From the IMG/VR virus record IMGVR_UViG_2728369554_000022, positions 1-17,352 of that record: DNA of 17,352 nt; one strand, given 5' to 3'. Both the position numbers and the translations under genes were made by a program. This DNA comes from a virus. Its lineage: Duplodnaviria > Heunggongvirae > Uroviricota > Caudoviricetes. The notes under the pieces were generated by a model. That model had not been told where the DNA came from and did not search any database. It saw nothing but the letters and a program-made list of their open reading frames with translations. This document shows, in pieces, positions 1-16,853 of this stretch (position 1 is the stretch's first letter; the number at the start of each line of letters is the position of its first letter).

Positions 1-392
1 TTACTTAACATTACCGCCTCCACCCCGCAGACGGGAGAACAGCCCGGATACCAGCGATGCGATATCCTGCTGGTGGATGAATGAGAGAATCTTCACCGAC
101 ACCACCGATACCAGTACCGCGCAAAGCGCGTCGAGAGATGTGCTGTGGAGATTCAGTTTTTCGACCAGGTAAGACGCCATCACATCCGCCCCCAGTACGC
201 CAACAATGAACGACACCAGAAAATGCGCTGCCACACGCCAGACAGAAATCTTCTGTGGTATCGTGGCCACAAACAGCGCCCCTGCGAATGCACCAAACAC
301 AATCCCGAAATCCGTTCCGGTAAACAGCCCGAATACCGTCGCCCCGCCGAGCGCCGCAGCCGTGCCGGAACCGGATAAGGGTTCAGACATAC
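1..392 (-). CDS. Putative holin-like phage membrane protein (130 aa), first gene of the lysis cassette
   Basis: ATG at 392 with AGGAGA 7 nt upstream, TAA at 3..1. Three hydrophobic segments and a charged C-terminus (RLRGGGGNVK). Position downstream of Q and tRNAs matches lambdoid S. Family not recognised by sequence. Confidence 0.4.
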
Positions 393-408
393 TTTTTCTC
401 CTGTAAAT

Positions 409-430
409 AAAAAAGGGCCTCTGTCGGCCC
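409..430 (-). terminator. Hairpin plus T-run immediately upstream of the holin RBS (attenuator or terminator)
   Basis: Minus strand reads GGGCC-gacaga-GGCCC followed by TTTTTT. Confidence 0.4.
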
Positions 431-475
431 GTAAAAAAACACCCCGTCAAAGGCACCCGCAGATACCTTTTGTGT

Positions 476-519
476 GGTGTTATCTGGTGTTTTCTGGTGT
501 TTTCTGGTGTGGTGTGTGC
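476..519. repeat. Tandem ~10-bp repeat (TGGTGTTTTC-like, 3 to 4 units)
   Basis: tggtgttatc / tggtgttttc / tggtgttttc / tggtgtggtgtgtg read directly from the sequence. Confidence 0.7.
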
Positions 520-568
520 AGGACACAGATGTGAAAAAGGTCCGCTGGTACGAACCCTGTATATGGAT

Positions 569-594
569 AAAAAAATGCCCGTCAGGAGACGGGC
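569..594 (-). terminator. Rho-independent terminator-like hairpin
   Basis: Minus strand: GCCCGTC-tcct-GACGGGC followed by ATTTTTTT. Confidence 0.45.
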
Positions 595-643
595 CAGAGC
601 ATTCATCGTGTAGTAATAGAATTATATTTATAATGGTCGCCAC

Positions 644-720
644 CAGAATGAGTCGTCAACCTATAAAGCCATCCTGGCTTACTGTACGTGTGCGCATGGA
701 ACAGGTAACGACTCATTCTG
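644..720. repeat. Perfect 13-bp inverted repeat with 51-bp spacer
   Basis: cagaatgagtcgt (644-656) and acgactcattctg (708-720) are exact reverse complements. Confidence 0.7.
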
Positions 721-895
721 CTAACGACGTTTACAAGTAATAATCACATACCATTATGTAATACAAAAAAAGCAGCACTGAAACTGTAACCGTTCAGATA
801 TTACAGCATGAAGAAAAACAATAGTACCTACAAAGCTGTTCTCCGCGAAAATTCGCCAGTGCTGATAAAGCTATGCCTCGTTTGTTTTACAGGAG

Positions 896-967
<72 letters not shown>

Positions 968-970
968 ATA

Positions 971-1046
<76 letters not shown>

Positions 1047-1658
1047 GTTGGTTCCTCGGGAGTGAGATGAGATGCCCCGATACATAATGTATCATTCCCT
1101 CGGAACCACAAAAATAATACTAATAAATAATCAGGATGCAATATTTACCAACTATGTAATTGTAAATTTGTTTGAATAAAAAATTACTAAACACGCCATA
1201 TCGCCCCTCTAAAAAAGGGGGGCGTAATAATATAAGTGATACTAAGCATCACATTACTAAATACATTGTATTAAGCTGGCGACCCGATGCGTAATCCCTT
1301 GATATTAAAAACTCCAAACAAAATCAGAATGCCATCTGAATACACAAAAAGCTGGCTTCACACCACCCTGTATGTGAACGCAGAACTCATCACCCCACGC
1401 GCTTTCGCAGCCAGTACACAACCTGTGTCAAACGCTGGCAGATGAACAATGAAACTGCCAGCACGGTCACCTATCTTAGTTCGCGTCTCGTATTCTGCTT
1501 GATAATAAGTTTCCCGTTCTTCTCTTATTGTGCATTTTTCAGTTTATCTGTCAGTAGCATTTTGACATACCAATAATTCCTGTCGAGAAAATCAGTGAGC
1601 TAAAAAACCGTATTCACAGCCTCGGGCACGTTTAACGTACCGCACCACTTTTCGGGCG

Positions 1659-1685
1659 TAAAAAAACCCACATTAAGCGGGTTTT
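1659..1685 (-). terminator. Weak hairpin plus U-run downstream of the Q-like gene (tR'-like candidate)
   Basis: Minus strand: AAAACCC-gcttaatgt-GGGTTTT then further T residues. Only 3 GC pairs in the stem. Confidence 0.3.
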
Positions 1686-1765
1686 CAGGTGTCCATGTCT
1701 GCTATACGCCTCGTGATACAGCTTTACGAAGCGTACCAAAATTGAAGCAGTTTGTACGTAAAAAA

Positions 1766-2308
1766 TCAAGCCATTTTTTGAGCAAATGATTCTCGCATGG
1801 GAATGTATAGCGCATACTCAGCAACAGCCAACCAATTAGCAATTCGCTTTTCGCATGTGCTAAAACACCACTCTGGGTGTGCATCATTTAGCAATTCAGC
1901 CATTTTTCGCTTAGTCATCCCCCGCCCCTCATAGCGTTGCCGGAGAATACAAATCAATCCCGGATGATCCGCCATAACTTCGCCAATAACTCTGTCGATT
2001 ATTAATGCCTCTGAATCGGCACAATGTGCCAGCCAGCTCTTTTGCTTGCCGTTAATCATATCCCGCAAAAAAGCCTCAAGTTCAGGCTTGTCCAGACCTG
2101 CTTTTTTCATCCTCCGGAGCACCTCGTTAATTGCCGTTTTCGTCAATTTTTTGGATGCCAACAACTGATTGAACATATTTCCTGACCTGCCACCGCCAAT
2201 ATACGACCAGCGCCCCCACATACGCAGTTTGCCCTGAATCCAGACACTTTCCAGCGTGGCGAGACGAAGGTGTTCTCCGCTTTTTCCTGTATTCGTTGGG
2301 TAAATCAC
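1766..2308 (-). CDS. Late antiterminator Q candidate (Q82/QuuD-like), start uncertain
   Basis: GTG at 2308 overlaps the upstream stop (GTGA) with AAGGAGGG 7 nt upstream; alternative ATGs at 2221 and 2176. LRMWGRW motif recalls the LERWGAW motif of QuuD from memory. Last gene before the tRNA/lysis leader. Confidence 0.45.
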   Translation of the reverse strand: MIYPTNTGKSGEHLRLATLESVWIQGKLRMWGRWSYIGGGRSGNMFNQLLASKKLTKTAINEVLRRMKKAGLDKPELEAFLRDMINGKQKSWLAHCADSEALIIDRVIGEVMADHPGLICILRQRYEGRGMTKRKMAELLNDAHPEWCFSTCEKRIANWLAVAEYALYIPMRESFAQKMA

Positions 2309-2595
2309 AAATATCCCTCCTTTCTCCAGATTTCTTGTGTGCGAAAAACACCTTCTGCATGCATCAGGCGTAATTCTTCTTTGGTGTAATCGCTGGTTTT
2401 TAGCCGCCCGTCGATTAGATCGTGGCATGAGCTACAGGCAATCGCCGCCTGCATATCGTGTGGTTTTGTCGCTATTCCGCACGTTCCCGCCAGTCGGTAA
2501 TGCGCCAGCACAGACGTTTCCGGATCGTGATTGCAGTAGCCAGGAATTCTGACGGTGCACATCTGCCCCCGCGCCGCTTTACGTAAATCCACCAT
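2305..2595 (-). CDS. ybcO: YbcO-like putative nuclease (DUF1364 family), 96 aa
   Basis: ATG at 2595 overlaps upstream stop (TAATG). Pattern DLRKAARG..C.VRIPG.CN..PETSVLAH..CSSCHD matches recalled DLP12 YbcO; same length. Confidence 0.55.
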   Translation of the reverse strand: MVDLRKAARGQMCTVRIPGYCNHDPETSVLAHYRLAGTCGIATKPHDMQAAIACSSCHDLIDGRLKTSDYTKEELRLMHAEGVFRTQEIWRKEGYL

Positions 2596-3194
2596 TACGC
2601 AAACTCCAGCAGCTGCGCGGCCACATTTTCGACTTGTTCCGGAGAGGAAAATTTACGGAACAGAATCCAGTTCCACAGCACATTCAGAACAGATTTATAA
2701 ACCTGCTGAAACTCGGTTTCGTCCATATTCGCAAAAGCGATGGATTTCGCCCGACGCCCATGGCTACCGTCCGGATAAAAATGTTCGGTGTAAAATCCAG
2801 CCTGAATGGTTACCCACTCGCGAAAAGCCTCAAACGACTTTAGCAATGCCGTATCCCGGGTTCTGCGAGTCGCAACGGTGTTAAGGTATTGCTCTGCAGC
2901 ATCACTAAGGGCTGGCGTATGTTCCCGACCTACTGATTCGCACAGGAAATCAACGAAACCGGACACCAGTTCTCGTTCGCGAGGCGTGATCACCCCACCG
3001 ACCGGAGTCCAGTAATCGAATCCCAGTTGCAGGAGTTTGAAAAAACGCTTGTGGAATGCGTAGTTACGCACACGCTTAAAGTCTGCGTGTATCCACTCAC
3101 CTATTTTGATTTGATGCAAAAAATCGCAACTCTCCGGCGTCGCCGGGAGAAGTAATCCGGAAGAGGTTTGTTTGACCAGTTGTATATGCGCCAT
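2595..3194 (-). CDS. nin-region phage protein of unknown function (possibly DUF1367 family), 199 aa
   Basis: ATG at 3194 with GGAGA upstream; the track's 3206 start is TTG. Family assignment is a recollection only. Confidence 0.45.
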   Translation of the reverse strand: MAHIQLVKQTSSGLLLPATPESCDFLHQIKIGEWIHADFKRVRNYAFHKRFFKLLQLGFDYWTPVGGVITPRERELVSGFVDFLCESVGREHTPALSDAAEQYLNTVATRRTRDTALLKSFEAFREWVTIQAGFYTEHFYPDGSHGRRAKSIAFANMDETEFQQVYKSVLNVLWNWILFRKFSSPEQVENVAAQLLEFA

Positions 3195-3253
3195 TGCTGT
3201 CTCCAATGGCGCTGTAGGTTGCCAGTTGTTCAGGCTGGCTTACGAATTATAAC

Positions 3254-3427
3254 TCATTCCCGAATCACCTTGAAACCGAGCCTTTCAAGATATTCAATGA
3301 ATGCCTCGATAGATAAAATTACATGATTATCAGGGATTAACGTTGCGTAGATAACTTCCCCATTCTCAACGCGCACAGCAAAGAGGCCATTTTCACTAAA
3401 AATTTCACGTAATTCTTCAATTTTCAT
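3254..3427 (-). CDS. Small hypothetical protein (57 aa), absent from the ORF track
   Basis: ATG at 3427 with AAGGA 8 nt upstream, TGA at 3256..3254; translates to MKIEELREIFSENGLFAVRVENGEVIYATLIPDNHVILSIEAFIEYLERLGFKVIRE. Confidence 0.4.
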   Translation of the reverse strand: MKIEELREIFSENGLFAVRVENGEVIYATLIPDNHVILSIEAFIEYLERLGFKVIRE

Positions 3428-3547
3428 CAACAGAATCCTTCCAGATAAATAGCACCCCCCTGTTCGGGGTCCATCCCTCTTCTCCCTGCGCGCTACTTAA
3501 GTATTTTTGATTCTATTCCGGCATCGTCCATAACTTCAAACGTATTG

Positions 3548-3579
3548 AAAATAAAAACAAAAACCCGCCGAAGCGGGTT
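3548..3579 (-). terminator. Rho-independent terminator of the hok transcript
   Basis: Minus strand: AACCCGC-ttcg-GCGGGTT followed by TTTGTTTTTATTTT. Confidence 0.65.
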
Positions 3580-3647
3580 AAGTGCGGGTGCGTTGAAGAT
3601 GCCTGACACATCATAGGCGGCGAGGGATTTCTCCCTCGCCTGGTCTC

Positions 3648-3803
3648 TTACTCCTCAGGTTCGTAAGCTGTGAAGACAGCGACCTCCGTCTGGCCGGTTC
3701 GGATTCGTACCTCGCAGAGGTCTTTCCTCGTTACCAGTGCCGTCACTATGACGGTTAAACAGATGACGATCAGGACGATTAACATCGCCTTTTGCTGCTT
3801 CAT
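3648..3803 (-). CDS. hokD: Hok/Gef-family type I toxin (51 aa)
   Basis: MKQQKAMLIVLIVICLTVIVTALVTRKDLCEVRIRTGQTEVAVFTAYEPEE, near-identical to recalled HokD/RelF; AAGGAGA upstream of ATG 3803. In-frame upstream ATG at 3860 gives a 70-aa mok-like extension. Confidence 0.8.
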   Translation of the reverse strand: MKQQKAMLIVLIVICLTVIVTALVTRKDLCEVRIRTGQTEVAVFTAYEPEE

Positions 3804-3975
3804 AGCCTGCTTCTCCTTGCCTTTCGGCACGTAAGAGGCTAACCTACATTTGTGAGACATAGATTGGGCCTCAGATTAATGTTAAGCGTCTTGCAGGACG
3901 CGTAATGTTAACTGGGGCTTTTCTCTATCTGCCTTTGGTGTTCATGCCCGAGGCAGATAGCCTCAAGCACCCGCA
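3804..3975. promoter_or_regulatory. hok leader with candidate antisense (Sok-like) region and structured elements
   Basis: Direct repeat TAATGTTAA (3876-3884, 3903-3911) flanking hairpin GCGTC-ttgcag-GACGC; 10-bp stem CTATCTGCCT/AGGCAGATAG at ~3937-3972. Sok promoter not defined. Confidence 0.35.
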
Positions 3976-4093
3976 GCAATTCTACTTAACTCTCCTTTTC
4001 CCGCAAACCGTTTTTATCCCCAGCGGCAAATCGAATACACCACCAGCGCCACCGCCATCGCAATTCCTACCGTGGTGAATGCATCAGGCCGGG

Positions 4094-4798
4094 TCATTGA
4101 TTCACCTCCTGCGGCGGTTCTGGTAGCGGCATCCAGTGAGTTGAGCTCTCTACTTCGACGCCGTCTTTGTCCACAAAAGCCATCTTATTCCCGCCACGAG
4201 TGGGGCAAAAAACCTTATCCCAGGAACCGGGGAATATATTCCCGAGATCATCGAGAAGAATCACATCGCAATATTCAGCAGGAACTGCATCACTACAGCT
4301 TATCCAGCCAGCCGGAGTTCCCGGAGAGCTGGTTGACGTTTCCGAGATTTCCCGAAAATTGTTGGTTGACGAATTCTTACTTTCCCGAAAGTTTTCGGCC
4401 TGAAGCATGGCGACACGGCAGGCGTTCCAGCCATCAGCATATGTTTCAGTTACACCGTCGAGATGGCAGGTAAGCAAATCCATTTCATCAGGCACTACCA
4501 TCGCTGGCGGCGCTGCGTAAAGCGGTGTTATTTCTGCCCGAAAATCACCTACTTTATGCAGTCGCACCCACCGTTCGATTTCTGCTTTGTCAGAATTCAT
4601 AAGGGTGAACGTATTACATTCATGGTTAATTTGCGTGAAGGTTGCCTTCCACGCCACCGGCTCTGCTTCCAGTGATGCCAGTGCAATTTTGAATAACTCG
4701 CCCTCTACCTGCGCCATCCCTGAATTTGGGTGGCATTTCGCAATCGCTATTTTTAATTTGGCTTCTTCGATTAATTGCTCTTTGGTTAATTCAGTCAT
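4094..4798 (-). CDS. Hypothetical phage protein (234 aa), C-terminus resembles DUF551
   Basis: ATG at 4798. C-terminal WIS.SD..P and THWMPLPEPP pattern recalls DUF551 from memory. Confidence 0.5.
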   Translation of the reverse strand: MTELTKEQLIEEAKLKIAIAKCHPNSGMAQVEGELFKIALASLEAEPVAWKATFTQINHECNTFTLMNSDKAEIERWVRLHKVGDFRAEITPLYAAPPAMVVPDEMDLLTCHLDGVTETYADGWNACRVAMLQAENFRESKNSSTNNFREISETSTSSPGTPAGWISCSDAVPAEYCDVILLDDLGNIFPGSWDKVFCPTRGGNKMAFVDKDGVEVESSTHWMPLPEPPQEVNQ

Positions 4799-4928
4799 TT
4801 TTCATTACCGCCCTTTCAGGCGGCCTCCTGATGTTCTGAGGGTGCAGAAATCCCTCCGGTTAAGGATTTAATAAAATTCACTTCTGATTTAAATTTTCAG
4901 TATTTTGTTGTCAGGTGGTTTATCGCCT

Positions 4929-5240
4929 TTATGCTTCAGTCTTATTTCTCAGCCATACACAAACAGGACCATCTTCAGTGTCATGAATGGAACCAATGAA
5001 CCAGCCTTCACCTTCCGGGCGCTCCGGTTTCCAGGAGGCAATATCGGGACCATCTGCGTCCAGATTAAAATCATCTTCATCCATAGTTCTGATGGTCCAT
5101 TGAAGATTATTTTCCTCCATCCATGCGTTAAACTCTTCCGTTGAAATATGTTCTCTACCATCACAGAATTTTTCATATTCAGGATGCGTCCAGCAGCCAT
5201 ATTCATCACGTACTACTGGTATTTCTTTAATTTCATTCAT
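4929..5240 (-). CDS. Highly acidic small phage protein (103 aa), function unknown
   Basis: ATG at 5240 with GGGAGA upstream; ~25% D+E, Trp-rich; stop overlaps next gene. Confidence 0.5.
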   Translation of the reverse strand: MNEIKEIPVVRDEYGCWTHPEYEKFCDGREHISTEEFNAWMEENNLQWTIRTMDEDDFNLDADGPDIASWKPERPEGEGWFIGSIHDTEDGPVCVWLRNKTEA

Positions 5241-5487
5241 TTCTGTTCTCCCACGTTTTCAGACTTTCACCACAGAACGGACAAAATGAAACCCGCACTG
5301 GTAATTTAGAAAATTCACCGGAACGCAACATCACCAAATCAGGGTCGCGAGTTAAATTCTCATTCCAGATTTTGTATATCAGCAGACCTTTTCGCGTCGT
5401 GTATTCAGCATCATGCTCAAGGGCTTTTGCCAGTACCGCACATGGTTCTATCTGATTGCTATTAACCTGACATTTTGATTCGCTCAC
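5233..5487 (-). CDS. Small Cys-containing protein (84 aa), possible zinc ribbon
   Basis: GTG at 5487 overlaps upstream TGA (GTGA) with AGGAGG upstream; Cys at 6, 16 and a CPFCG motif. Confidence 0.45.
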   Translation of the reverse strand: MSESKCQVNSNQIEPCAVLAKALEHDAEYTTRKGLLIYKIWNENLTRDPDLVMLRSGEFSKLPVRVSFCPFCGESLKTWENRNE

Positions 5488-5906
5488 AGCATCACCTCCT
5501 GAAATTCCCCCTGATAAAACGCCAGCACTCGCTGCATAACCTCACTCTTCCGGCACTCGCGACAGATTATGTTCTGACGCCTGTCGTAGCGGCGTATTTC
5601 TCCGTCAGGTAATGACCTGATAAGGTCCGGATCAACCACAGCCGTTTTCTTCACCTTTGCCCTTGAGAGTTTTTTGCGGGCGTTTTGCCAGTCCTTACGG
5701 GCCTGTTCAGAGGGAAATAACCCGTAGCCAGAGTTGTATACATCACCACTAGCAACCAGCTCTCTGGCGAGAACACTCATCAGATATCTTGTCGCACCTG
5801 TTTTCGCTTCCAGTTGCCGTAACGTCTCGCGCCCACTCCGGCGTACTAGCTCAACAACCTGCCCTTTAATTTTTTCTCGCTCTTCCTGTGTAAATACTTT
5901 TGCCAT
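5484..5906 (-). CDS. Hypothetical phage protein (141 aa) with winged-helix-like N-terminus
   Basis: ATG at 5906 with GGGGAGG upstream; track start at 5972 is TTG without RBS. Confidence 0.5.
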   Translation of the reverse strand: MAKVFTQEEREKIKGQVVELVRRSGRETLRQLEAKTGATRYLMSVLARELVASGDVYNSGYGLFPSEQARKDWQNARKKLSRAKVKKTAVVDPDLIRSLPDGEIRRYDRRQNIICRECRKSEVMQRVLAFYQGEFQEVML

Positions 5907-5922
5907 AAGCCCTCCCCAGGAA

Positions 5923-6684
5923 TCACTTTTCCGACACAATACGACTGGAGGAATCAACAATCTGTCGAACAATATCCCGGTGCTTATTCAGCTCCCGCAG
6001 CGCGGCGCAGACACGCTCCCACTTCTGGACATGACTTTTCGCCCGACGCAGTTCGCGGTTTGCCATATGCAGCGATGGTAAAACCAGGTCATCCGCTTGC
6101 GTTTCGGCGAACGGTGGCAACGACTGCACAATATCCGCCACAGTTTCTGTTTTAATATCTTCCTGTGTTGCAGCTTCCTGTACTGGTAACGCAACACCGG
6201 CTGGCTGAGGAAAGGCTTTACCATCAGTTTCCGCTACCGATGCCGCTTTCGGCTCTGCTGGTAAATTACCGCCCGGCATGCAGTAACGAAATTTACCGTT
6301 CTGATTAACACGAATCAGACGACCTTTGCTGATTGCCATTGCCAGCGTTGAAGCCACTTTGCGGGATGTTGTACCGAACAGCGTAGCCAGTTCATCCGCC
6401 GTTTGTGGTCCGCGTTGTTCAATCGTCGCGGTTAAATCGCACTCTGAGATTTTCGCTACTGTCGCCGTGCTGGTTTCTTCCGGCTGTTCTTCTGGCGCTG
6501 GCTGTTCCTGCTGAACGTTGTTATCAGCCACACGCCAGGTGTATGCGCTTTTATCAACGAAGCCAGCCTTTTTAAGTTCCCACAGCTCATTCAGCACTTC
6601 TTCACGACTGATATCAAGTCGCGCAGCCAGCTCTACCGACGTGGCTTTTCCCATCGCTTTCAGTGCGTCAAAAACAGTCTCCAT
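5923..6684 (-). CDS. Phage protein with two winged-helix-like segments (DUF1627-like), 253 aa
   Basis: ATG at 6684 with GGGAGG upstream; acidic linker; sits downstream of the DnaC-like gene. Confidence 0.5.
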
Positions 6685-6704
6685 AAATTTCCTCCCGGTA
6701 AAAA

Positions 6705-7451
6705 TTACTTTTCAATACCTGGCTGACCAACATTCGGGCGCCAGCTCTCCCAGTTAAAATTCACCCAGCGCCCGCCGTTCATGGTCATGCGATCCATAAT
6801 CCGCTCGCCGAGCAATGTTTTCATGGCCTCATAGTTCAGGTTTGTCAGCATTCCCACGCTACGCATCGACGCTGTCCGTCGATCAATAATCTGGTGCAGT
6901 ACCACCTGCTCGTTTTTCGTCTCGCGCTGAATGCCAATTTCATCAAGAACCAGCAGATCCACTTCGCACAGTTCCCGCAAAAATTTTTCGCCTGACTGCC
7001 CGTCGTCATAGCTGGCGTGCAGGGCGCTCATAACATCAGCCACGGTAACCACAATCACTGTCTGACCGTCTTTCAGCAGGCGATTCCCGATAGCTGCCGC
7101 TAAGTGATTCTTCCCGGTACCAGGTTTTCCGCTGAACGCAAAATTTGTACACCCGGTCATCAGTTCATCGGCGATGGATTTCGCCTGGCTTAACGCGTAT
7201 CGCTGGCCGTCGTTCTGCACCTGGTAATTCGCAAACGAGCATTTACGGTGCAACGGCTGGATGCCTGAGCGATTCAGAATTTTTTCCACCCGCAACTGGC
7301 GATTCAGGCGGTTGATCTCCTCGCTACGTTTCTGGCCTTCAGCAAGTTGCCACTCGCGCCACTCCGCAACCGTTCTGAATGGGGCGGTTACATGTGGTGG
7401 GGTCAGTCTGCGGATACGCTCCAGAACGCCTCCTGTCGCAATATTTTTCAT
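6705..7451 (-). CDS. DnaC-like replicative helicase loader (AAA+ ATPase, YdaV-like), 248 aa
   Basis: Walker [16 protein letters not shown] and Walker B LLVLDEIG; position after the initiator gene. Confidence 0.85.
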
Positions 7452-7457
7452 GGTCTG

Positions 7458-8252
7458 TTACCCCCTGAAGCCTGGCGGGATCGCACTGTCCGGCAACGAG
7501 ACGGTGTTAACCTGTCGGAGCAACGTCTCAGGCCGAACACCTTTCGGCGCGAACAGGCCCTGGTATTCATTGGCGATGCTGTGTCGAATCACCTGCTCAG
7601 GTGTAAAACCCTGCTGACGGAATTTTTCCAGTTCCCGTATCGCCCCGTTAGCGCCCTGCTCCGTTCGAATCGGTTTTCGCAATGCCTGTCTGAACCGGAC
7701 CCACTCATGCCAGAGTGTTTCCGGCAACCAATCGGGCAGCTCAATAGCCTCCGGCTCGAATTTTTTAGACGCTCGTTTTTGGCGAGGGGGATTTAGGGGG
7801 AGATCAGTATTTAGATCTTCCTCTTCCTCTTCCTCTTCCTCTGGTAGCGCTTTTTGATCCGTTTGTGTAACGCCGGCAGCGTTACCTTTTCGTTTCAGTT
7901 CACGTATTTTTGTAACTCGCTCGTTTGTAACCGCCCGTTTTTTAGAGCTTTTTCCGTTATGGCGTTCAAAGTTAGGTAGAGAAAGCCCAACGTCATTTTC
8001 GACCAGCCATCCAACCTGAATTAACGCATCAGCAAAACCAGCCATAAAAGTGATGCGATCTATTGCACTTTTTGTAACGCCGCGAGCGTTACAATCTGCA
8101 TTACCGTCTATCATTTGTTGATCCGCCCATGCCCAGAAGCGAATAACCTTCCCTAATGCGGCATCTGGATCAATATTCAGAATCTCAGCAAGCCTGAATA
8201 TTTCCGGCTTATCCGGCGTAATAACCTCGAGCTTTATCCAGTTTGAAGCCAT
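7458..8252 (-). CDS. Replication initiator / replisome organiser (YdaU-like, lambda O analogue), 264 aa
   Basis: ATG at 8252 with AAGGTG upstream; poly-Glu linker; contains two of the three 19-bp palindromes; immediately precedes the DnaC-like gene. Confidence 0.5.
   Translation of the reverse strand: MASNWIKLEVITPDKPEIFRLAEILNIDPDAALGKVIRFWAWADQQMIDGNADCNARGVTKSAIDRITFMAGFADALIQVGWLVENDVGLSLPNFERHNGKSSKKRAVTNERVTKIRELKRKGNAAGVTQTDQKALPEEEEEEEEDLNTDLPLNPPRQKRASKKFEPEAIELPDWLPETLWHEWVRFRQALRKPIRTEQGANGAIRELEKFRQQGFTPEQVIRHSIANEYQGLFAPKGVRPETLLRQVNTVSLPDSAIPPGFRG
7817..7842. repeat. Hexanucleotide tandem repeat (CTCTTC)n encoding a poly-Glu tract
   Basis: cttcctcttcctcttcctcttcctct encodes EEEEEEEE on the minus strand. 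Confidence 0.8.
7867..7885. repeat. 19-bp palindrome GTAACGC-N5-GCGTTAC, copy 1 (inside initiator gene)
   Basis: gtaacgccggcagcgttac read directly. Confidence 0.8.
8074..8092. repeat. 19-bp palindrome GTAACGC-N5-GCGTTAC, copy 2 (inside initiator gene)
   Basis: gtaacgccgcgagcgttac, with flanking TT/AA extending the symmetry. Confidence 0.8.
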
Positions 8253-8265
8253 TTGTTTTCACCTT

Positions 8266-8284
8266 GTAACGCTCGCAGCGTTAC
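8266..8284. repeat. 19-bp palindrome GTAACGC-N5-GCGTTAC, copy 3 (intergenic, upstream of initiator RBS)
   Basis: gtaacgctcgcagcgttac, located between the ydaT-like stop and the initiator start. Confidence 0.8.
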
Positions 8285-8329
8285 ATTTAACTGATACCGA
8301 ACAAAACAATCCGGCACGATTAATTTCAA

Positions 8330-8752
8330 TCAATGCACTACGACAGAATCACCGGGCGACCCACCACCGCTGAAATGTGCTTTCCGGTAAACGGCCTGGA
8401 CTGCATCATCATGCGCATCAATTGCCGTACTCAACGCTTCCTGCGCCGCCAGTAATGCACGGCGTTCCAGGGTATCGAAGATGCAGAGTCGGTGACGCAG
8501 CTCGCGCGGAAGAATTGCCAGAACCGCAGGGATCAGTGTCTGAATTTTTTCCCTTTGCGCTTTCGTTTCACCTTTTAACCAACGGTGATAGATGTTCTGC
8601 TGATTATTCCAGTCCTTGCCTGGTACCAGGGGCAATTCGCCGCCCCCCTGGCGCAGATATTCTTCAGTAATTGCATTGGCTACCCATGCCTGCCCTTTTT
8701 CAGCGGCCAGGGCTAACAGCACTGATTCGATGTGCTCATGCCTGATTTTCAT
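8330..8752 (-). CDS. ydaT: YdaT-like protein (140 aa)
   Basis: ATG at 8752 with AGGAG upstream; length and position after the YdaS-like gene match the Rac ydaS-ydaT pair. Confidence 0.6.
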   Translation of the reverse strand: MKIRHEHIESVLLALAAEKGQAWVANAITEEYLRQGGGELPLVPGKDWNNQQNIYHRWLKGETKAQREKIQTLIPAVLAILPRELRHRLCIFDTLERRALLAAQEALSTAIDAHDDAVQAVYRKAHFSGGGSPGDSVVVH

Positions 8753-9011
8753 GAATCAACTCCTGTGCATTTTGTGTGTTAGCCTTACATCCAACAGGTA
8801 AACCATCGGTCGGATTCGGGTAGATATCAGGCCGGAGTTCATGAGGTGTAACCTCGAAATTCGTAGCCTCTGCGATACGCAATACCTTTTCAGGGCTTAA
8901 CTGACTACGTCCAGTAGCAACGAGGCTAATCATTGATTGCGAACAACCAGCCAGCGCGGCCAAACAAGACTGTCGTACACGATTTTTTTTCAAATATTCA
9001 TCTAATGTCAT
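8736..9011 (-). CDS. ydaS: YdaS-like Cro-type HTH regulator (91 aa)
   Basis: ATG at 9011 with AAGGTGA upstream (track start at 9038 is TTG); HTH-like segment; divergent from the repressor gene. Confidence 0.55.
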   Translation of the reverse strand: MTLDEYLKKNRVRQSCLAALAGCSQSMISLVATGRSQLSPEKVLRIAEATNFEVTPHELRPDIYPNPTDGLPVGCKANTQNAQELIHENQA

Positions 9012-9115
9012 AAGGGTCACCTTAGTAATGTTCGCCAAAATATTAACTATACTAATTTAAATGATCAATACTTATATCAGTTTGAGATTATGAGCTGTGT
9101 TCATAAGATGGTGGT
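9012..9115. promoter_or_regulatory. Divergent promoter/operator region between ydaS-like and racR-like genes
   Basis: 104-bp AT-rich intergenic region with palindrome TTATGA-gctgtgt-TCATAA (~9090-9108) and TGATCA (9064-9069). Confidence 0.4.
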
Positions 9116-9580
9116 ATGAGAAGAAAACGCGAAGAAATCGCATCGCCAGAAGCTACGCAGCGTCTACGCGGAATCTGGGATGCAAAAAAAAGAGAGCTCA
9201 AATTGACTCAGGAGCTTGCTGCCGAGCTAATGGGCTTTGAGACGCAATCTACGGTTAGCCACTATCTCAACGGAAAGGCTCCACTTAACACTGATGCGGC
9301 ATTAAAATTCGCAGTATTGCTAAGAGTTAAGCCTGAAGACTTGAGGCCTGATTTAGCTGATCTGATGAATTACGTCCGTTCCTCTGGAACTTATGACGAA
9401 AGTTTCGAAGGCGAAGGGTGGCGGATGGTTAACAAGCAACAAGCTGATTTACTGGATCTTTTTGATATCCTCCCCGAATCAGAAAAAGCAAAACTAATCG
9501 AAAGGCTTAAAGGCCAGAATGAACTCTACAAAGAAGCGTTTGAAAATATGCTGGCAGCTCAGAAACGCATAAAGAAATAG
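9116..9580 (+). CDS. racR: RacR-like prophage repressor (HTH), 154 aa
   Basis: HTH-like LTQELAAELMGFETQSTVSHYLNG; divergent from ydaS-like; followed by a strong terminator. Confidence 0.6.
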   Translation: MRRKREEIASPEATQRLRGIWDAKKRELKLTQELAAELMGFETQSTVSHYLNGKAPLNTDAALKFAVLLRVKPEDLRPDLADLMNYVRSSGTYDESFEGEGWRMVNKQQADLLDLFDILPESEKAKLIERLKGQNELYKEAFENMLAAQKRIKK

Positions 9581-9600
9581 CCCCCACTACCTCGTAACTA

Positions 9601-9626
9601 AACCGCCATCCCTGGCGGTTTTTTTG
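9601..9626 (+). terminator. Rho-independent terminator after racR
   Basis: CCGCCA-tccc-TGGCGG followed by TTTTTTT. Confidence 0.7.
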
Positions 9627-9697
9627 TCCCCTGCGCCCCCATCGCCTTACTTTTTTATCAAAAAAAACACTAAAATTTTCATTATGATAGTACATTT

Positions 9698-9728
9698 TTA
9701 TCAACAAAATGCATATTTATGTTGATCA
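9698..9728. promoter_or_regulatory. Candidate operator/promoter upstream of ydaG (early-left, PL-like position)
   Basis: Inverted repeat TTATCAACA-N13-TGTTGATCA in an AT-rich region ~90 bp upstream of ydaG. Confidence 0.3.
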
Positions 9729-9816
9729 TTAATATGAATATAACTAATATTATTGCAGAAGCAGCACGGCGCTGTAGGTTTTAGTTCCGCCACCCGGCGT
9801 TAAGGGGAGAGATAAG

Positions 9817-9951
9817 ATGGTGCATTACGAAGTAGTTCAGTATTTGATGGATTGTTGCGGTATCACTTACAACCAGGCTGTGCAGGCTTTACGCAGCAAC
9901 GACTGGGATCTCTGGCAGGCAGAAGCCTCTATCCGCAACAACAAAATGTGA
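9817..9951 (+). CDS. ydaG: YdaG-like small protein (44 aa)
   Basis: ATG at 9817 with AGGGGAGAG upstream; MVHYEVVQYLMDCCGITYNQAVQALRSNDWDLWQAEASIRNNKM; size and position match recalled Rac ydaG. Not in ORF track. Confidence 0.5.
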   Translation: MVHYEVVQYLMDCCGITYNQAVQALRSNDWDLWQAEASIRNNKM

Positions 9952-9961
9952 GGTGCGAAAA

Positions 9962-10114
9962 ATGCAAAAAATCGACCTCGGCAATAACGAATCCCTGGGG
10001 TGCGGCGTGTTCCCCAACCAGGATGGAACGTTCACTGCCATGACTTATACCAAAAGCAAGACATTCAAAACTGAAACGGGCGCACGTCGCTGGCTTGCCA
10101 GAAATACTGGCTAA
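9962..10114 (+). CDS. ydaF: YdaF-like small protein (50 aa)
   Basis: ATG at 9962 with GAGGTG upstream; MQKIDLGNNESLGCGVFPNQDGTFTAMTYTKSKTFKTETGARRWLARNTG. Not in ORF track. Confidence 0.5.
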   Translation: MQKIDLGNNESLGCGVFPNQDGTFTAMTYTKSKTFKTETGARRWLARNTG

Positions 10115-10295
10115 TCCATTATTTGGATTAATTCAATATTCTCGCTGTAGGGGTATAGCAGAAACCACCAAAGCCCGGAGGTGGTGAAATAAAACCGGGC
10201 ACAACACGAAGGCGCATTTCCGATATCCATAAAGAGTCGGTTTTGTCTGTTAAATTTAAATGGTGGGAGTGCGCCTCCGGTTGTAAATAACGACA

Positions 10296-10360
10296 TTGCT
10301 GTGTGTAGTCTTGGCGGCATCAGTTTTTTCTTGAAGTTCGGCTGATGTCCGCCCCTTTTT
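10296..10360 (+). ncRNA. DicF-like sRNA candidate with intrinsic terminator, upstream of kilR
   Basis: TTGGCGGCATCAGTTTT ... CTGATGTCCGCCCC-TTTTT; stem GGCGGCATCAG/CTGATG(T)CCGCC plus U-run; resembles recalled DicF core. Boundaries approximate. Confidence 0.45.
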
Positions 10361-10525
10361 AAAGTGAATTTTGTGATGCGGTGAATGCGGCTAAGCGCAC
10401 GCGGAACAGTTAAAAGCATCAGTGTTATGGGTGGATTATCCGGCGTTAATTGTTAACTGGTTAACGTCACCTGGAGGCACCAGGCACCGCATCAACAAAG
10501 TTCATTTGTAAAAATGGAGATAATT

Positions 10526-10747
10526 ATGATTGCACATCACTTCGGAACTGAGGAAATACCACGTCAGTGTGTGACTCCTGGCGATTATGTTCTTCATGAA
10601 GGCCGGACATATATTGCCTCGGCAAACAATATTAAAAAGCGAAAACTTTATATTCGTAACCTGACCACAAAAACATGCATTACTGACTGCATGATTAAAG
10701 TCTTCCTCGGTCGTGATGGTTTACCTGTAAAGGCGGAGTCATGGTGA
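10526..10747 (+). CDS. kilR: KilR-like cell-division inhibitor (73 aa)
   Basis: ATG at 10526 with GGAGA upstream; size and synteny with Rac kilR; sequence recognised from memory. Confidence 0.7.
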
Positions 10748-10917
10748 TGACTAAGAAAATAAAATGTGCTTACCACCTTTGCAATAAAGAAGTTGAAAAA
10801 AGCAAAAGCATTACAAAACCACTTCATTTCATGCGTGGAGTTATCCCAACGACGGAAATGAAAAAATATTGTAGTGAAATATGTGCCGAAAAAGACCAGA
10901 TGGCACACGAACTTTAA
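10747..10917 (+). CDS. ydaE: YdaE-like Cys-rich small protein (56 aa)
   Basis: ATG overlaps kilR stop (TGATG); four Cys; not in ORF track as a separate ORF. Confidence 0.6.
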   Translation: MTKKIKCAYHLCNKEVEKSKSITKPLHFMRGVIPTTEMKKYCSEICAEKDQMAHEL

Positions 10918-10991
10918 TTAACTGACTATTCGAAACTGAATTTATGCCAGCAATGGCAGGGATTCACTCAACCTTAATTAAGGAGAAAAAC

Positions 10992-11237
10992 ATGATTACC
11001 AATTATGAAGCCACTGTTGTAACTACCGATGACATTGTTCACGAGGTTAATCTGGAAGGAAAGCGTATTGGCTACGTGATTAAAACAGAAAATAAAGAAA
11101 CCCCATTCACTGTGGTTGATATCGACGGTCCATCAGGCAACGTAAAAACACTTGATGAAGGTGTCACAAAAATGTGCCTGGTTCACATCGGAAAGAATCT
11201 GCCCGCAGAAAAAAAGCCGGATTTCTGGCAACTCTGA
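10992..11237 (+). CDS. racC: RacC-like protein (81 aa from this start)
   Basis: ATG at 10992 with AGGAGA 5 nt upstream; upstream in-frame ATGs at 10944/10953 lack an RBS. Confidence 0.55.
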   Translation: MITNYEATVVTTDDIVHEVNLEGKRIGYVIKTENKETPFTVVDIDGPSGNVKTLDEGVTKMCLVHIGKNLPAEKKPDFWQL

Positions 11238-11367
11238 TTGCAATGAAATTAAACGGTGAAATCTGAAAGAAATAGCCTGCGTATGGCGCAGGCTATGAAC
11301 AGTGTGTATCCGGCAAGATCATTCACTGAACAAAACGAATTTTAATCTGAGTTGAGGTTAAAAAACA

Positions 11368-14040
11368 ATGAGCACAAAACCACTCTTCCTGTTACGGAAA
11401 GCGAAAAAATCATCCGGTGAACCTGACGTCGTCTTGTGGGCAAGCGACGATTTTGAATCGACCTGTGCCACTCTGGACTACCTGATCGTTAAGTCAGGTA
11501 AAAAACTGAGCAGCTATTTTAAAGCTGTTGCCACGAATTTTCCTGTCGTTAATGACCTTCCCCCTGAAGGTGAGATCGATTTTACCTGGAGTGAACGCTA
11601 TCAACTCAGCAAAGACTCCATGACCTGGGAACTAAAACCGGGAGCAGCGCCAGACGACGTTCACCACCATGATAATGCTCAGGAAACCAAAGAACTGGCG
11701 GGGGGCCAGGAAGAAAACGCGCAGGCAGACGCCCACGGGGATTGCCAGGATTGCGAAGTCTCTGTAGCCACTTTGCGGTTCACACAGCGTCTTCTGCACA
11801 TTTTTACGTATGCGGCCGGGGATCGGAAATACCTGCATCATGCCACCCGTGAACAACGCGAACACATCACTGCTCTTGAGATGGATCAGGAAAACAGCTA
11901 TGTCCAGAATCTGCTGTTGGCCATACGCGGCATGGCAGAACCGACAACTCTGGATAATGCCGCCCTGCTCCGCCTGACTGATGCAATTAAGGCAGTTTTC
12001 TCTATCACGAAAAAACATCAGCCCTATGAATTTAAGAATTTCATTTCAGCCTGGCTGGATACCGAACACATTGATCGCGGTCTTCTGACAAAAGAATGGC
12101 GAAAAGGGAATCGTGTTTCACGCATCACTCGCACGGCTTCCGGTGCTAATGCTGGCGGCGGGAACCTCACCGATCGCGGCGAAGGTTTCGTCCACGATCT
12201 GACGTCACTGGCGCGCGATGTAGCCACTGGCGTACTGGCCCGTTCAATGGACGTGGACATTTATAACCTTCATCCTGCACACGCTAAACGCATTGAGGAA
12301 ATTATCGCTGAAAATAAACCGCCCTTTTCTGTTTTCCGCGACAAATTCATCACCATGCCTGGCGGGCTGGATTATTCCCGCGCCATCGTGGTTGCGTCCG
12401 TGAAAGAAGCACCAATTGGGATCGAGGTCATCCCCGCGCACGTCACTGAATATCTGAACAAAGTACTGACTGAAACCGATCATGCCAACCCTGATCCGGA
12501 AATCGTGGATATTGCCTGCGGTCGCTCCTCTGCCCCGATGCCGCAGCGTGTAACAGAAGAAGAAAAACAGGATGATGAAGAAAAACCGCAACCATCTTGC
12601 GCAATGGCAGATGAACAGGCAACGGCTGAAACAGTGGAACCGGATGCAACTGAACATCATCAGGACACGCAGCCGCTGGATGCTCAGTCACAGGTAAATT
12701 CTGTTGATGCGAAATATCAGAAACTGCGGGCAGAACTCCATGAAGCCCGGAAAAACATTCCGCCCAAAAATCCTGTCGATGCAGACAAATTACTGGCTGC
12801 CTATCGCGGAGAATTTGTTGCAGGGATTAGCGACCCGAATGATCCGAAATGGGTTAAAGGGATCCAGACCCGCGATTCTGTGTACCAGCATCAGCCAGAA
12901 ACGGAACAGAACGACCGAAAATCGGAACAAAACGGCCAAAATGCGCGACAAAATGAACCAGAAGCGCAACAGGAACTGGAAAAAGTCTGCAATGCCTGCG
13001 GTCAGTCTGGTGGAGATAACTGCCCTGATTGTGGCGCGGTGATGGGCGACACCACATATCAGGAAACCTTTAATGAAGAAAATCTGGATGAATCTCAGGA
13101 AAAAGATCCGGAGGAAATGGAAGGCCCTGAACATCCGCACAATGAGAATGCTGGCAGCGATCCGCATCGCGATTGCAGTGATGAAACTGGCGAAGTCGCA
13201 GATCCCGTAATCGCAGGAGACATAGAGCCTGGTATTTATTACGGAATTTCGAATGAGAATTACCACGCGGGTCCCGGTGTCAGTAAGTCTCAGCTCGACG
13301 ACATTGCTGATACTCCGGCGCTGTATTTGTGGCGTAAAAATGCCCCAGTGGACACCACAAAGACAAAAACGCTCGATTTAGGAACCGCTTTCCACTGCCG
13401 TGTACTTGAACCGGAAGAATTCAGTAACCGCTTTATCGTGGCACCTGAATTTAACCGCCGTACAACCGCCGGAAAAGAAGAAGAGAAAGCGTTTCTGATG
13501 GAATGCGCAAGCACAGGAAAAACGGTTATCACTGCCGAAGAAGGCCGGAAAATTGAACTCATGTATCAGAGCGTTATGGCTTTGCCGCTGGGTCAATGGC
13601 TTGTTGCAAGCGCCGGACACGCTGAATCATCAATTTACTGGGAAGATCCTGAAACAGGAATTTTGTGTCGGTGCCGTCCGGACAAAATTATTCCTGAATT
13701 TCACTGGATCATGGACGTGAAAACCACAGCGGATATTCAACGATTCAAAACGGCTTATTACGACTACCGCTATCACGTTCAGGATGCATTCTACAGTGAC
13801 GGTTATGAAGCACAGTTTGGTGTGCTGCCAACTTTCGTTTTTCTGGTTGCCAGCACAACTGTTGAATGCGGACGTTACCCGGTTGAGATTTTCATGATGG
13901 GCGAAGAAGCAAAACTGGCAGGCCAGCAGGAATATCACCGCAATCTGAGGACCCTGGCTGACTGCCTGAATACCGATGAATGGCCAGCTATTAAAACGTT
14001 ATCACTGCCCCGCTGGGCTAAGGAGTATGCAAATGACTAA
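11368..14040 (+). CDS. recE: RecE exodeoxyribonuclease VIII (890 aa)
   Basis: N-terminus [41 protein letters not shown] recognised as RecE; long acidic central region; C-terminal nuclease domain. Confidence 0.9.
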
Positions 14041-14842
14041 GCAACCACCTATCGCAAAAGCCGATCTGCAAAAAACCCAGGGAAACCGTGCACCAGCAGC
14101 AGTAAAAAATAACGACGTGATCAGCTTTATTAATCAGCCATCAATGAAAGAGCAACTGGCAGCAGCTCTCCCACGCCATATGACGGCTGAACGAATGATA
14201 CGTATCGCCACTACAGAAATTCGTAAGGTTCCGGCGCTAGGAAACTGTGACACCATGAGTTTTGTCAGTGCGATCGTTCAGTGTTCACAGCTCGGCCTTG
14301 AGCCAGGTAGCGCCCTCGGCCACGCATATTTACTGCCTTTTGGTAATAAAAACGAAAAGAGCGGTAAAAAGAACGTCCAGCTAATCATTGGTTATCGCGG
14401 CATGATTGATCTGGCTCGCCGTTCTGGTCAAATCGCCAGCCTGTCAGCCCGTGTTGTCCGTGAAGGTGACGTGTTTAGTTTTGAATTTGGCCTTGATGAA
14501 AAGTTAATACACCGCCCGGGAGAAAACGAAGATGCACCAGTGACCCACGTCTATGCTGTCGCAAGACTGAAAGACGGAGGGACTCAGTTTGAGGTTATGA
14601 CACGCAAACAGATTGAGATTGTACGCAACCAGAGTAAAGCAGGTAATAACGGGCCGTGGGTAACTCACTGGGAAGAAATGGCAAAAAAAACGGCTATTCG
14701 TCGCCTGTTCAAATATCTGCCCGTATCAATTGAGATCCAGCGTGCAGTATCAATGGATGAAAAGGAACCACTGACAATCGATCCTGCAGATTCCTCTGTA
14801 TTAACCGGAGAATACAGTGTAATCGATAATTCAGAGGAATAA
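14033..14842 (+). CDS. recT: RecT single-strand annealing recombinase (269 aa)
   Basis: ATG at 14033 overlaps recE 3' end, AAGGAG upstream; [16 protein letters not shown] recognised. Confidence 0.9.
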
Positions 14843-14849
14843 TTCAGCC

Positions 14850-14868
14850 TGGCGGTGTAATGCACCGC
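14850..14868 (+). other. GC-rich hairpin between recT and ralR (possible attenuator)
   Basis: GGCGGTG-taat-GCACCGCC; T-run begins ~12 nt downstream, so not a canonical terminator. Confidence 0.3.
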
Positions 14869-14898
14869 CAACTTGAAATATTTTTTATGAGAAAAATT

Positions 14899-15093
14899 AT
14901 GAGATATGACAATGTTAAACCATGTCCATTTTGTGGTTGTCCATCAGTAACGGTGAAAGCCATTTCAGGATATTACCGAGCGAAGTGTAACGGATGCGAA
15001 TCCCGAACCGGTTATGGTGGAAGTGAAAAAGAAGCACTCGAAAGATGGAATAAACGAACCACTGAAAATATTAATGGAGGCTTTCATGTATAA
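14899..15093 (+). CDS. ralR: RalR/Lar restriction-alleviation protein (64 aa)
   Basis: MRYDNVKPCPFCGCPSVTVKAISGYYRAKCNGCESR..., zinc-ribbon-like, recognised as Rac Lar. Confidence 0.8.
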   Translation: MRYDNVKPCPFCGCPSVTVKAISGYYRAKCNGCESRTGYGGSEKEALERWNKRTTENINGGFHV

Positions 15094-15274
15094 AATTACC
15101 GCTACAATTGAAAAGGAAGGTGGCACTCCTACTAACTGGACAAGATATTCAAAATCTAAACTAACGAAATCGGAATGCGAAAAAATGCTCTCAGGGAAAA
15201 AAGAAGCAGGCGTTTCCAGAGAGCAGAAAGTAAAACTGATAAATTTTAATTGCGAGAAACTTCTGTCATCGTGA
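15086..15274 (+). CDS. ydaC: YdaC-like small protein (62 aa from this start)
   Basis: ATG at 15086 with GGAGG 5 nt upstream, overlapping ralR stop; synteny with Rac ydaC. Confidence 0.55.
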   Translation: MYKITATIEKEGGTPTNWTRYSKSKLTKSECEKMLSGKKEAGVSREQKVKLINFNCEKLLSS

Positions 15275-15380
15275 GTTGCATTATATCCAAATCAGAACTT
15301 CATAGCTGATTATTAAAAATCAACCACACCCGCCAGTATTTTGTATATTTACTGGCGGTCATATCGTAAGAGGTATGGCA

Positions 15381-16704: not shown

Positions 16705-16751
16705 TTTTAACGTAAATGGATTGTTAAATGTATTTTGGTTGTGATATAACC

Positions 16752-16853
16752 AAAAAAGACCGAATACGATTCCTGTATTCGGTCCAGGGAAATGGCTCTT
16801 GGGAGAGAGCCGTGCGCTAAAAGTTGGCATTAATGCAGGCTTAGTTGCCTTGC
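16752..16853 (-). ncRNA. sdsR: SdsR (RyeB) sRNA
   Basis: Minus strand reads GCAAGGCAACTAAGCCTGCATTAATGCC...GACCGAATACAGGAATCGTATTCGGTC-TTTTTT, matching recalled SdsR with its terminator; sigma-S-like -10 TCTATTCTTAA just upstream. Confidence 0.8.

Follow-up and report, generated by a model that had tools for sequence, protein, structure and literature searches.

A Rac-like lambdoid prophage with an intact and very probably autonomous hok/mok/sok cassette of the HokD/HokW subgroup in its nin region

Introduction

Type I toxin-antitoxin systems belonging to the hok/sok family have been described since the 1980s. In the mechanism worked out for plasmid R1, the hok mRNA carries a metastable hairpin at its 5' end and passes through two forms. 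The full-length form is closed, with tac paired to fbi and ucb lying on the mok Shine-Dalgarno (SD) sequence, and the 3'-trimmed form is open, with tac paired to ucb and the mok SD to dcb, and is the form that can be translated and that Sok binds (PMC9841398). The R1 hok mRNA is stable and is processed from its 3' end, Sok is unstable, Hok kills the cell and Sok protects it (PMC9841398), properties that were likewise shown for hokW-sokW (PMC8621323).

A relative carried by phages, the hokW-sokW cassette of 933W, was annotated in 1999 (AF125520), and its copy in Sp5 was tested in 2021 (Takada et al., PMC8621323). In Sp5, HokW is toxic and sokW expressed from its own promoter protects against it (PMC8621323). 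Changing the -10 box of sokW from TAACCT to GAGCCG (primers YO-421/422) abolished this protection and unmasked the toxicity of HokW, sokW supplied in trans restored the protection in part, and the hokW and sokW RNAs were both visible on Northern blots (PMC8621323). A further relative, hokD (relF) of Escherichia coli K-12, is the third gene of relBEF in the Qin cryptic prophage.

The locus described here lies in a stretch of 17,352 nucleotides of a Caudoviricetes virus (IMG/VR record IMGVR_UViG_2728369554_000022, positions 1 to 17,352), which is called the window throughout. A first-pass annotation, made from the letters of the window alone, had placed an intact hok-family toxin locus without a relBE partner at 3548-3975. 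In our analysis the region from about 3556 to 4007 on the minus strand is very probably an intact type I toxin-antitoxin cassette, hok/mok/sok, that is autonomous and falls in the HokD/HokW subgroup; its place is the nin region of a lambdoid, Rac-like prophage.

Materials and Methods

Structural conservation was scored on an alignment of 25 homologues, 69-97% identical, from Escherichia, Shigella, Kluyvera, Pseudocitrobacter, Erwinia and others. The positions of ucb and dcb were set after the account of the R1 mechanism in PMC9841398. A long-range helix, CUCUUAC/GUAAGAG, had been considered as the ucb/dcb pair and was dropped on the same account; the helix itself is 98.9% paired. For the hok and Sok promoters, the assignment rests on homology with 933W and the R1-type locus.

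Allelic variation was scored on 120 further loci from viral contigs. The search pattern was fixed at both flanks of the mok-start region and nowhere else, and its bias is confined to those flanks. The distribution of the intact form was determined in 5426 complete E. coli genomes with a 451-nt query at a coverage of at least 80%. The prophage context was taken from strains RM11911 and UTAK-1.

Results and Discussion

The toxin and its reading frames

The coding features of the locus and their ribosome-binding sites are as follows.

3648-3803, minus strand: hok toxin gene, 51 aa (open reading frame and Pfam match)
3818-3813, minus strand: hok SD, AAGGAG, 9 nt before the hok ATG; the homology to K-12 hokD starts here
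3648-3860, minus strand: mok, a reading frame of 70 aa that is in the frame of hok; the equivalent open reading frame is mokW in the 933W annotation
3874-3868, minus strand: mok SD region, CUGAGGC, with GAGG at 3872-3869, 8 nt upstream of mok

The toxin matches the Pfam family HOK_GEF (PF01848) with 79.9 bits against a cutoff of 22 (E 9.8e-23). The NCBIfam Hok models also match it, with scores under their family-specific cutoffs. The first-pass annotation had judged the toxin near-identical to HokD/RelF, which is correct, as 50 of 51 residues are shared with K-12 HokD and the sole change is A10V. Identity to HokW is 46 of 51 residues and identity to the Hok of IncFII plasmids is 42%. The separate ribosome site for hok and the in-frame, 70-aa mok-like extension that had been proposed are also present, the latter with a GAGG of its own.

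Elements and folds of the hok mRNA

The Rfam sok model (RF01794) matches 3798-3972 on the minus strand with 117.7 bits, against a gathering score of 59 (E 9.7e-27), and the match covers model positions 1-157 of 157. Because this model runs in the direction of the hok leader, the match marks the leader on the minus strand, and the Sok RNA is its complement on the plus strand. The elements of the mRNA, in order from its 5' end after the transcript as a whole, are listed here.

3556-3972, minus strand: predicted full-length hok (mok-hok) mRNA, about 417 nt, with the 5' end placed at the start of the Rfam model and the 3' end placed from the terminator
3972-3961, minus strand: tac, GGGUGCUUGAGG, the 5' end of the hok mRNA
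3944-3970, minus strand: metastable 5' hairpin (mRNA nt 3-29), predicted to form during transcription
3920-3912, minus strand: ucb, AAGCCCCAG, partner of the mok SD in the full-length form and of tac once the RNA is truncated
3846-3868, minus strand: hypervariable patch that forms the upper stem and loop of the sokT (Sok-target) hairpin and is complementary to the Sok 5' tail
3840-3835, minus strand: dcb, AGCCUC, which pairs with the mok SD in the truncated form
3619-3640, minus strand: 3' UTR hairpin, GGCGAGGGA-GAAA-UCCCUCGCC, with arms GGCGAGGGA/TCCCTCGCC, read from the sequence and the fold
3598-3586, minus strand: fbi, CUUCAACGCACCC, complementary to tac
3579-3562, minus strand: intrinsic terminator of the hok transcript, made up of a 7-bp stem, in which 5 pairs are G-C, and a T run behind it; identical in K-12 hokD

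The minimum free energy (MFE) fold of the full-length mRNA has an energy of -170 kcal/mol (z = -7.0 against shuffles), and in it the 5' end closes on the 3' end through tac/fbi. This value and the Rfam score are both well beyond chance. The structured leader of the first-pass annotation is present, as are the hairpin and terminator that it had noted on the 3' side of hok. When the last 44 nt or so are removed from the RNA, the 5' end refolds locally in the computed fold. When 5' fragments of growing length are folded, the metastable hairpin appears first, and then the tac/ucb and SD/dcb pairings of the Rfam consensus. The metastable hairpin is the MFE structure of the first 35 nt (-18.8 kcal/mol), and in this nascent fold tac pairs with nt 19-29.

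Over the 25 homologues, the full-length structure is 88% paired, compared to about 40% in slid controls, and 27 of its pairs have changed on both sides. The truncated-type leader is 76% paired, compared to about 40% in its slid controls. Among the individual helices, the metastable hairpin is 99.6% paired, and 8 of its 11 pairs vary with pairing kept; the tac/fbi helix is 97.7% paired, with one compensatory change from a G-C to an A-U pair; and the 3' UTR hairpin is 95.1% paired, with two compensatory pairs. By analogy with R1, this last hairpin probably stabilises the 3'-processed mRNA. The pairs of tac/ucb in the truncated-type fold and the mok-SD/dcb stem are invariant in all 25 sequences; thus, these two stems are conserved but carry no evidence of covariation. 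The helices that the full-length MFE draws in the variable patch are only 63-67% conserved, so that this part of the fold is uncertain.

The hok 3' UTR also resembles isrK in Rfam at 26.7 bits, against a threshold of 50, a likeness that lies in the generic shape of a hairpin plus terminator. An origin of the Gifsy-1 IsrK from a recycled hok 3' end was rejected. In Gifsy-1, isrK comes directly after Q and next to the C4 antisense RNA, whose a1/b1 target elements it overlaps, and there is no hok nearby.

Promoters and the Sok RNA

Two convergent promoters and the antisense RNA complete the locus.

3979-4007, minus strand: putative hok/mok promoter, with -10 box TAGAAT at 3984-3979 and a weak -35 box (TTTGCG/TTGCGG) at 4007-4001
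3817-3845, plus strand: Sok promoter, with -35 box TTGCCT at 3817-3822, a 17-nt spacer and -10 box TAACCT at 3840-3845, read from the sequence
3852-3922, plus strand: predicted antisense RNA Sok, 71 nt from a start at G3852, placed by means of the sokW feature in AF125520

The -10 box of the candidate hok promoter is separated by 6 nt from the presumed +1 G at 3972. Conservation jumps at 3972 and the region is identical in 933W, which points to a promoter at this place. The locus was correctly located by the first-pass annotation, but the unit is slightly longer than stated there, as the -10 box (3984-3979) and the -35 box (about 4007-4001) both lie beyond the limit it gave. The same annotation had named the plus strand as the place to look for a Sok promoter, and by homology there is one at 3817-3845. 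Its -35 box, spacer and -10 box are identical to those of the sokW promoter of 933W/Sp5, and its -10 box, TAACCT, matches the consensus at 3 of 6 positions. The Sok RNA predicted from this start begins with 14 unpaired nt as its 5' tail, continues as a long hairpin and closes with UUUU (-29.2 kcal/mol, z = -5.3). Since sokW of the tested 933W/Sp5 locus maps onto the window with an identical promoter, the Sok gene and its promoter are taken as present.

A scan of 3400-4200 for consensus sigma-70 promoters left the hok and Sok promoters both below threshold. For hok, this outcome fits a weak promoter. The sole promoter-like match in the scan, at 3539-3510 on the minus strand, is downstream of the hok terminator and was set aside.

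The scan result would also suit a passively carried, non-functional remnant in which the toxin frame is kept and is either unexpressed or unregulated, as has been reported for hok loci of K-12, where hok/sok is stated to be inactive (PMC1635323). Decay does occur in the family; the 5' end is degraded in one relative (homologue L006). A remnant is nevertheless highly improbable here for several reasons. First, the window copy, unlike K-12 hokD, keeps every regulatory element. Secondly, pi is 0.03 in the hok coding sequence and in the Sok hairpin, which is consistent with purifying selection. Third, the Sok promoter is the one that is active in Sp5. Lastly, the same locus is present in inducible phages, mEp460, HannyBb and Tritos among them. 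By computation, all elements are present, are conserved and covary, and the promoters of Sok and sokW show no difference, in agreement with an intact cassette.

Proposed mechanism

If the R1 model holds for the window sequence, the intact cassette would operate as follows. A weak promoter would give rise to a stable hok mRNA of about 417 nt, and during transcription the 5' tac would be locked in the local hairpin. In the finished RNA, tac would be paired with fbi and the mok ribosome site would be covered by ucb, which would permit neither translation nor Sok binding. Slow trimming of the 3' end would then remove the terminator and fbi. At this stage tac would move to ucb and the mok ribosome site would pair with dcb, forming a hairpin with the mok AUG in its loop. 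This hairpin could be translated, in which case translation of mok would open hok, or the short-lived Sok could capture it through its 5' tail, in which case the duplex of Sok and hok mRNA would be degraded. Once Sok synthesis was halted, the stored hok mRNA would be translated and the 51-aa Hok would damage the inner membrane. Prophage induction, a shut-off of transcription or loss of the element are possible causes of such a halt.

The expression of the window allele, and a behaviour like that of hokW-sokW, would be expected by analogy with the tested locus. The Sok tail differs from that of SokW at 6 of 16 nt; thus, the Sp5 experiments transfer by homology of architecture and not by identity of sequence.

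Genomic setting and distribution

The host element is a mosaic, Rac-like prophage that is inserted next to yebY and the sdsR/ryeA pair. A coverage of at least 80% of the window was reached by none of the complete E. coli genomes. Starting at the window's right end, the genes come in the order integrase, excisionase, ralR/RalA, recT, recE, a repressor and cro-like pair, and replication genes of the ydaT/U/V type. After the replication genes come DUF1627, DUF977, DUF551, a 27-aa open reading frame, hok, a Rem-like open reading frame, DUF1367, YbcO, DUF1133 and two tRNAs. The two features directly before the cassette are these.

4094-4798, minus strand: DUF551 gene (E 7e-19), upstream of hok
4014-4097, minus strand: hydrophobic open reading frame of 27 aa, directly upstream of the hok promoter; its ATG overlaps the DUF551 stop codon as ATGA

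The first of these is the unrelated DUF551-like upstream gene that the first-pass annotation had named. The 27-aa frame goes with the module, as it lies inside the 933W homology and is conserved with conservative substitutions in about 50 loci; no Pfam or NCBIfam model matches it.

The hok gene is co-oriented with the early rightward operon, downstream of the replication genes, and there is no terminator between it and the upstream genes. Sense read-through after induction could thus run against the convergent Sok promoter. Such a collision would be in line with a role for the cassette as an aid to lysis, by analogy with hokW-sokW in Sp5. On this account induction would remove Sok, Hok would act before holin and endolysin, and the weakened membrane would let more phage out. 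In Sp5, Sok is lost after mitomycin C and HokW production depends on RecA; without the locus, growth arrest comes about 40 min later and phage release is halved (PMC8621323). The reported effect is, however, a modest, two-fold one in a single phage. Moreover, the 933W/Sp5 locus sits at the far right end and not in the nin region, so trigger and role may differ. We therefore consider lysis aid as the main role of the cassette possible but doubtful.

The intact form was found in 3950 of the 5426 complete E. coli genomes, with a median of 2 copies and a maximum of 10, mostly in prophages. The relE-hokD junction was found in 1165 of the same 5426 genomes. The contrast with K-12 that the first-pass annotation had drawn is thus sound, although its K-12-centred framing is not, since the form without relBE is the commoner one. 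In the phage collection, loci 95-98% identical to that of the window occur in ten phage records, including mEp460, HannyBb, Evi and Tritos. RefSeq annotates only the coding sequence, as 'hokD', at the E. coli copies. For annotation, the K-12-centred view is thereby corrected: a 'hokD' outside K-12 is usually a complete, self-regulated hok/mok/sok cassette whose Sok RNA is left unannotated.

The number of copies per genome, up to 10 and mostly in prophages, also bears on whether the same device serves mainly a selfish or defensive end, either by post-segregational killing or by an abortive response to lytic phages that block host transcription, by analogy with R1 hok/sok and T4. Other toxin-antitoxin pairs adjoin the locus, relBE in K-12 and a Doc-family pair in UTAK-1, and R1 hok/sok stabilises plasmids and lowers the plating of T4, as cited in PMC8621323 and PMC10305079. 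Activation may be difficult for a locus present as one chromosomal copy (PMC1635323), though, and deletion of hokW-sokW gave no growth phenotype absent induction (PMC8621323). A mainly selfish or defensive role therefore appears rather unlikely.

Variation in the Sok tail and its target loop

Diversity was compared between parts of the locus, and the pi values are given by region.

hok codon positions 1 and 2: 0.028
hok third codon positions: 0.038
Sok hairpin: 0.028
3852-3867, the 16 nt complementary to the Sok 5' tail: 0.34 (0.30-0.34 over the patch 3846-3868)

Among 113 prophage loci that are otherwise near-identical, the Sok-tail region is about 9 times more diverse than the synonymous sites of hok.

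In the 120 loci, the patch has 21 alleles, at least 7 of them major, which differ at 3-9 of 16 positions. For example, the allele of the window, GUGAGACAUAGAUUGG, is the third most common, and that of 933W is GUUCAGCAUGGAUUGA. All major alleles keep the mok AUG and an SD/dcb hairpin of -13.2 to -14.7 kcal/mol, and the changes are located in the upper stem and loop. This pattern has the look of an antisense recognition loop that is diversifying, rather than of constraint that has been relaxed. Tentatively, and with the balance tipped slightly against it, we suggest that the 16-nt Sok 5' tail and the matching target loop (3846-3868) are a specificity determinant under diversifying or balancing selection.

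If this is true, lambdoid prophages would carry mutually orthogonal hok/sok cassettes, and co-resident or incoming phages could not neutralise the toxin of one another. Orthogonal alleles would explain the coexistence of up to ten copies per genome, and they would matter for attempts to trigger Hok with anti-Sok oligomers. Of the six genomes with 2-3 full copies, five had all-different alleles and in one an allele occurred twice; with a chance identity of only 0.11, this sample has no power. No mention of a hypervariable Sok tail was found in the hok-family literature searched, the scope of which did not extend to older subscription papers.

Comparison with known systems

The cassette of the window is an ordinary member of a family that is already known, and it adds nothing new to type I toxin-antitoxin biology. 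Its likeness to the cassette of 933W is high. Nucleotide identity is 92% over 537 nt (window 4112 to 3576), a stretch that includes the 27-aa upstream frame, and about 93% for hokW/mokW/sokW of 933W and VT2-Sakai (Sp5). The hok promoter region, tac, ucb, the Sok hairpin, the Sok -35 and -10 boxes, the hok SD and fbi are identical or nearly so, and mokW, like the mok of the window, is in frame and 70 aa long. Sok and SokW differ at 7 of 71 nt, of which 6 are in the first 16 nt and 1 is in the other 55. Two further differences concern the surroundings. The terminator that follows fbi in 933W is unrelated to that of the window, and the 933W cassette is located at the far right end, beyond the tail-fibre genes, whereas that of the window is in the nin region.

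The R1-type locus of IncFII plasmids has its elements in the same order as the window, namely tac, its metastable partner, ucb, the Sok-terminator hairpin, mok SD, mok AUG, dcb, hok SD, hok, the 3' hairpin, fbi and the terminator. The mok frame of the IncFII R1-type locus is also in frame with hok, and an out-of-frame mok in R1, which had been entertained as a difference, was accordingly dropped. The Sok promoter is in the same place, as TTGCGC-17-TATCCT in IncFII and TTGCCT-17-TAACCT in the window. The IncFII tac/fbi differs from that of the window in a compensatory way, with GGCGCUU pairing with AAGCGCC, and the Sok hairpin is about 18 nt longer in the window than in the R1-type locus. Both loci belong to the Rfam sok family; the carrier is a plasmid for the R1 type and a prophage for the window.

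The likeness to K-12 hokD is confined to one side of the locus. The K-12 sequence aligns only from AGGAGAAGCAGGCTATG at the hok SD onward (window 3817 to 3360), and has in common with the window the hok SD, the 3' hairpin, fbi, the terminator and the downstream Rem-like neighbour. It is without the promoter and without tac, ucb and the start of mok, and of Sok both the body and the -10 box are missing; relE is found in their place, as the first-pass annotation had implied by setting the locus against a Qin hokD behind relBE. The relBEF-type arrangement, in which hok follows right behind relE with no leader, mok start or Sok, is absent from the window, and the HokD protein name alone is common to both. 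These data support a window locus that does not depend on relBE. Because the homology continues into the Rem-like downstream gene and relE lies upstream in K-12, the two loci occupy the same place in the lambdoid nin region, and in K-12 the leader has been replaced by relBE. The relBE-hokD of K-12 is the derived, truncated form, which has lost its leader to relBE, and the form found in the window is the usual state.

Diversity at the Sok 5' tail

Diversity across loci is concentrated in a short patch of the cassette, where the target loop of hok and the 5' tail of Sok, the antisense RNA, coincide.
3846-3868, minus strand: hypervariable patch at the hok target loop and Sok 5' tail
3852-3867, plus strand: Sok nucleotides 1-16, within the patch
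Among 113 loci, nucleotide diversity (pi) was 0.34 in this patch versus 0.038 at the synonymous sites of hok. The patch occurs as 21 alleles, seven of which are common; every major allele keeps the hairpin architecture.

Sequences flanking the hok cassette

A small reading frame lies upstream of hok, and a region with transcription-like signals lies between the hok terminator and a Rem-like ORF.
4014-4097, minus strand: 27-aa hydrophobic ORF (MTRPDAFTTVGIAMAVALVVYSICRWG)
3539-3510, minus strand: promoter-like site, TTGAAG-18-TAGAAT
3470-3454, minus strand: terminator-like hairpin, 3' of the promoter-like site
3254-3430: 58-aa Rem-like ORF
The DUF551 stop codon and the ATG of the 27-aa ORF overlap, and the -35 box of hok is located about 10 nt past the end of the ORF. 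It is kept as an ORF in approximately 50 related loci and, by homology, accompanies hok into the Shiga-toxin phage 933W. No family match was found for it in NCBIfam or Pfam; at the equivalent position in E. coli UTAK-1, RefSeq annotates a 34-aa hypothetical protein. Downstream of hok, the promoter-like site and hairpin (3454-3539, minus strand) may produce a short leader transcript or act as an attenuator, and this region is retained in the K-12 Qin prophage.

Atypical relatives of the cassette

Two relatives of the cassette were unusual. In E. coli ECMA0423 (locus L006, 1333-1724) the hok copy has a diverged 5' end: the initial ~40 nt of the hok mRNA, which is the tac region, has diverged (GACTGCATGTGG...), and the remaining locus is 93% identical. 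This copy may represent decay in progress. The second, PP818812.1, is designated "Actinobacillus phage vB_Apl-pPE4" and carries a locus 98% identical to the E. coli-type hok cassette. Such a cassette is unexpected for a Pasteurellaceae host, which suggests that the host was mis-assigned or that the record is contaminated.

Toxin-antitoxin pairs and prophage context

Other toxin-antitoxin pairs gather immediately around hok in UTAK-1 and K-12. Besides hok/sok, the prophage carries another toxin-antitoxin pair under RNA control, RalR/RalA.
UTAK-1 locus L179, 2295-2978 (versus 3431-3555 in the window): Doc-family type II pair, between hok and DUF1367
K-12 locus L002, 4347-4873: relBE, directly upstream of hok
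15092-15270, minus strand: RalA, the antitoxin sRNA of the type I pair RalR/RalA (210 bits in Rfam)

An sRNA pair and yebY lie immediately beyond the integrase gene and place the prophage at the yebY-side attachment site rather than at the Rac site of K-12.
16747-16891, both strands: overlapping sRNA pair SraC/RyeA and SdsR/RyeB
17011-17352, minus strand: yebY

Elsewhere in the prophage, at 895-1046 on the minus strand, the phage carries a pair of tRNA genes, Gly(TCC) and Thr(TGT).
They lie in a mosaic part of the prophage, since the set differs from that of the 99.7%-identical relative RM11911, whose late-region leader contains tRNAs for Ile, Arg and Gly.
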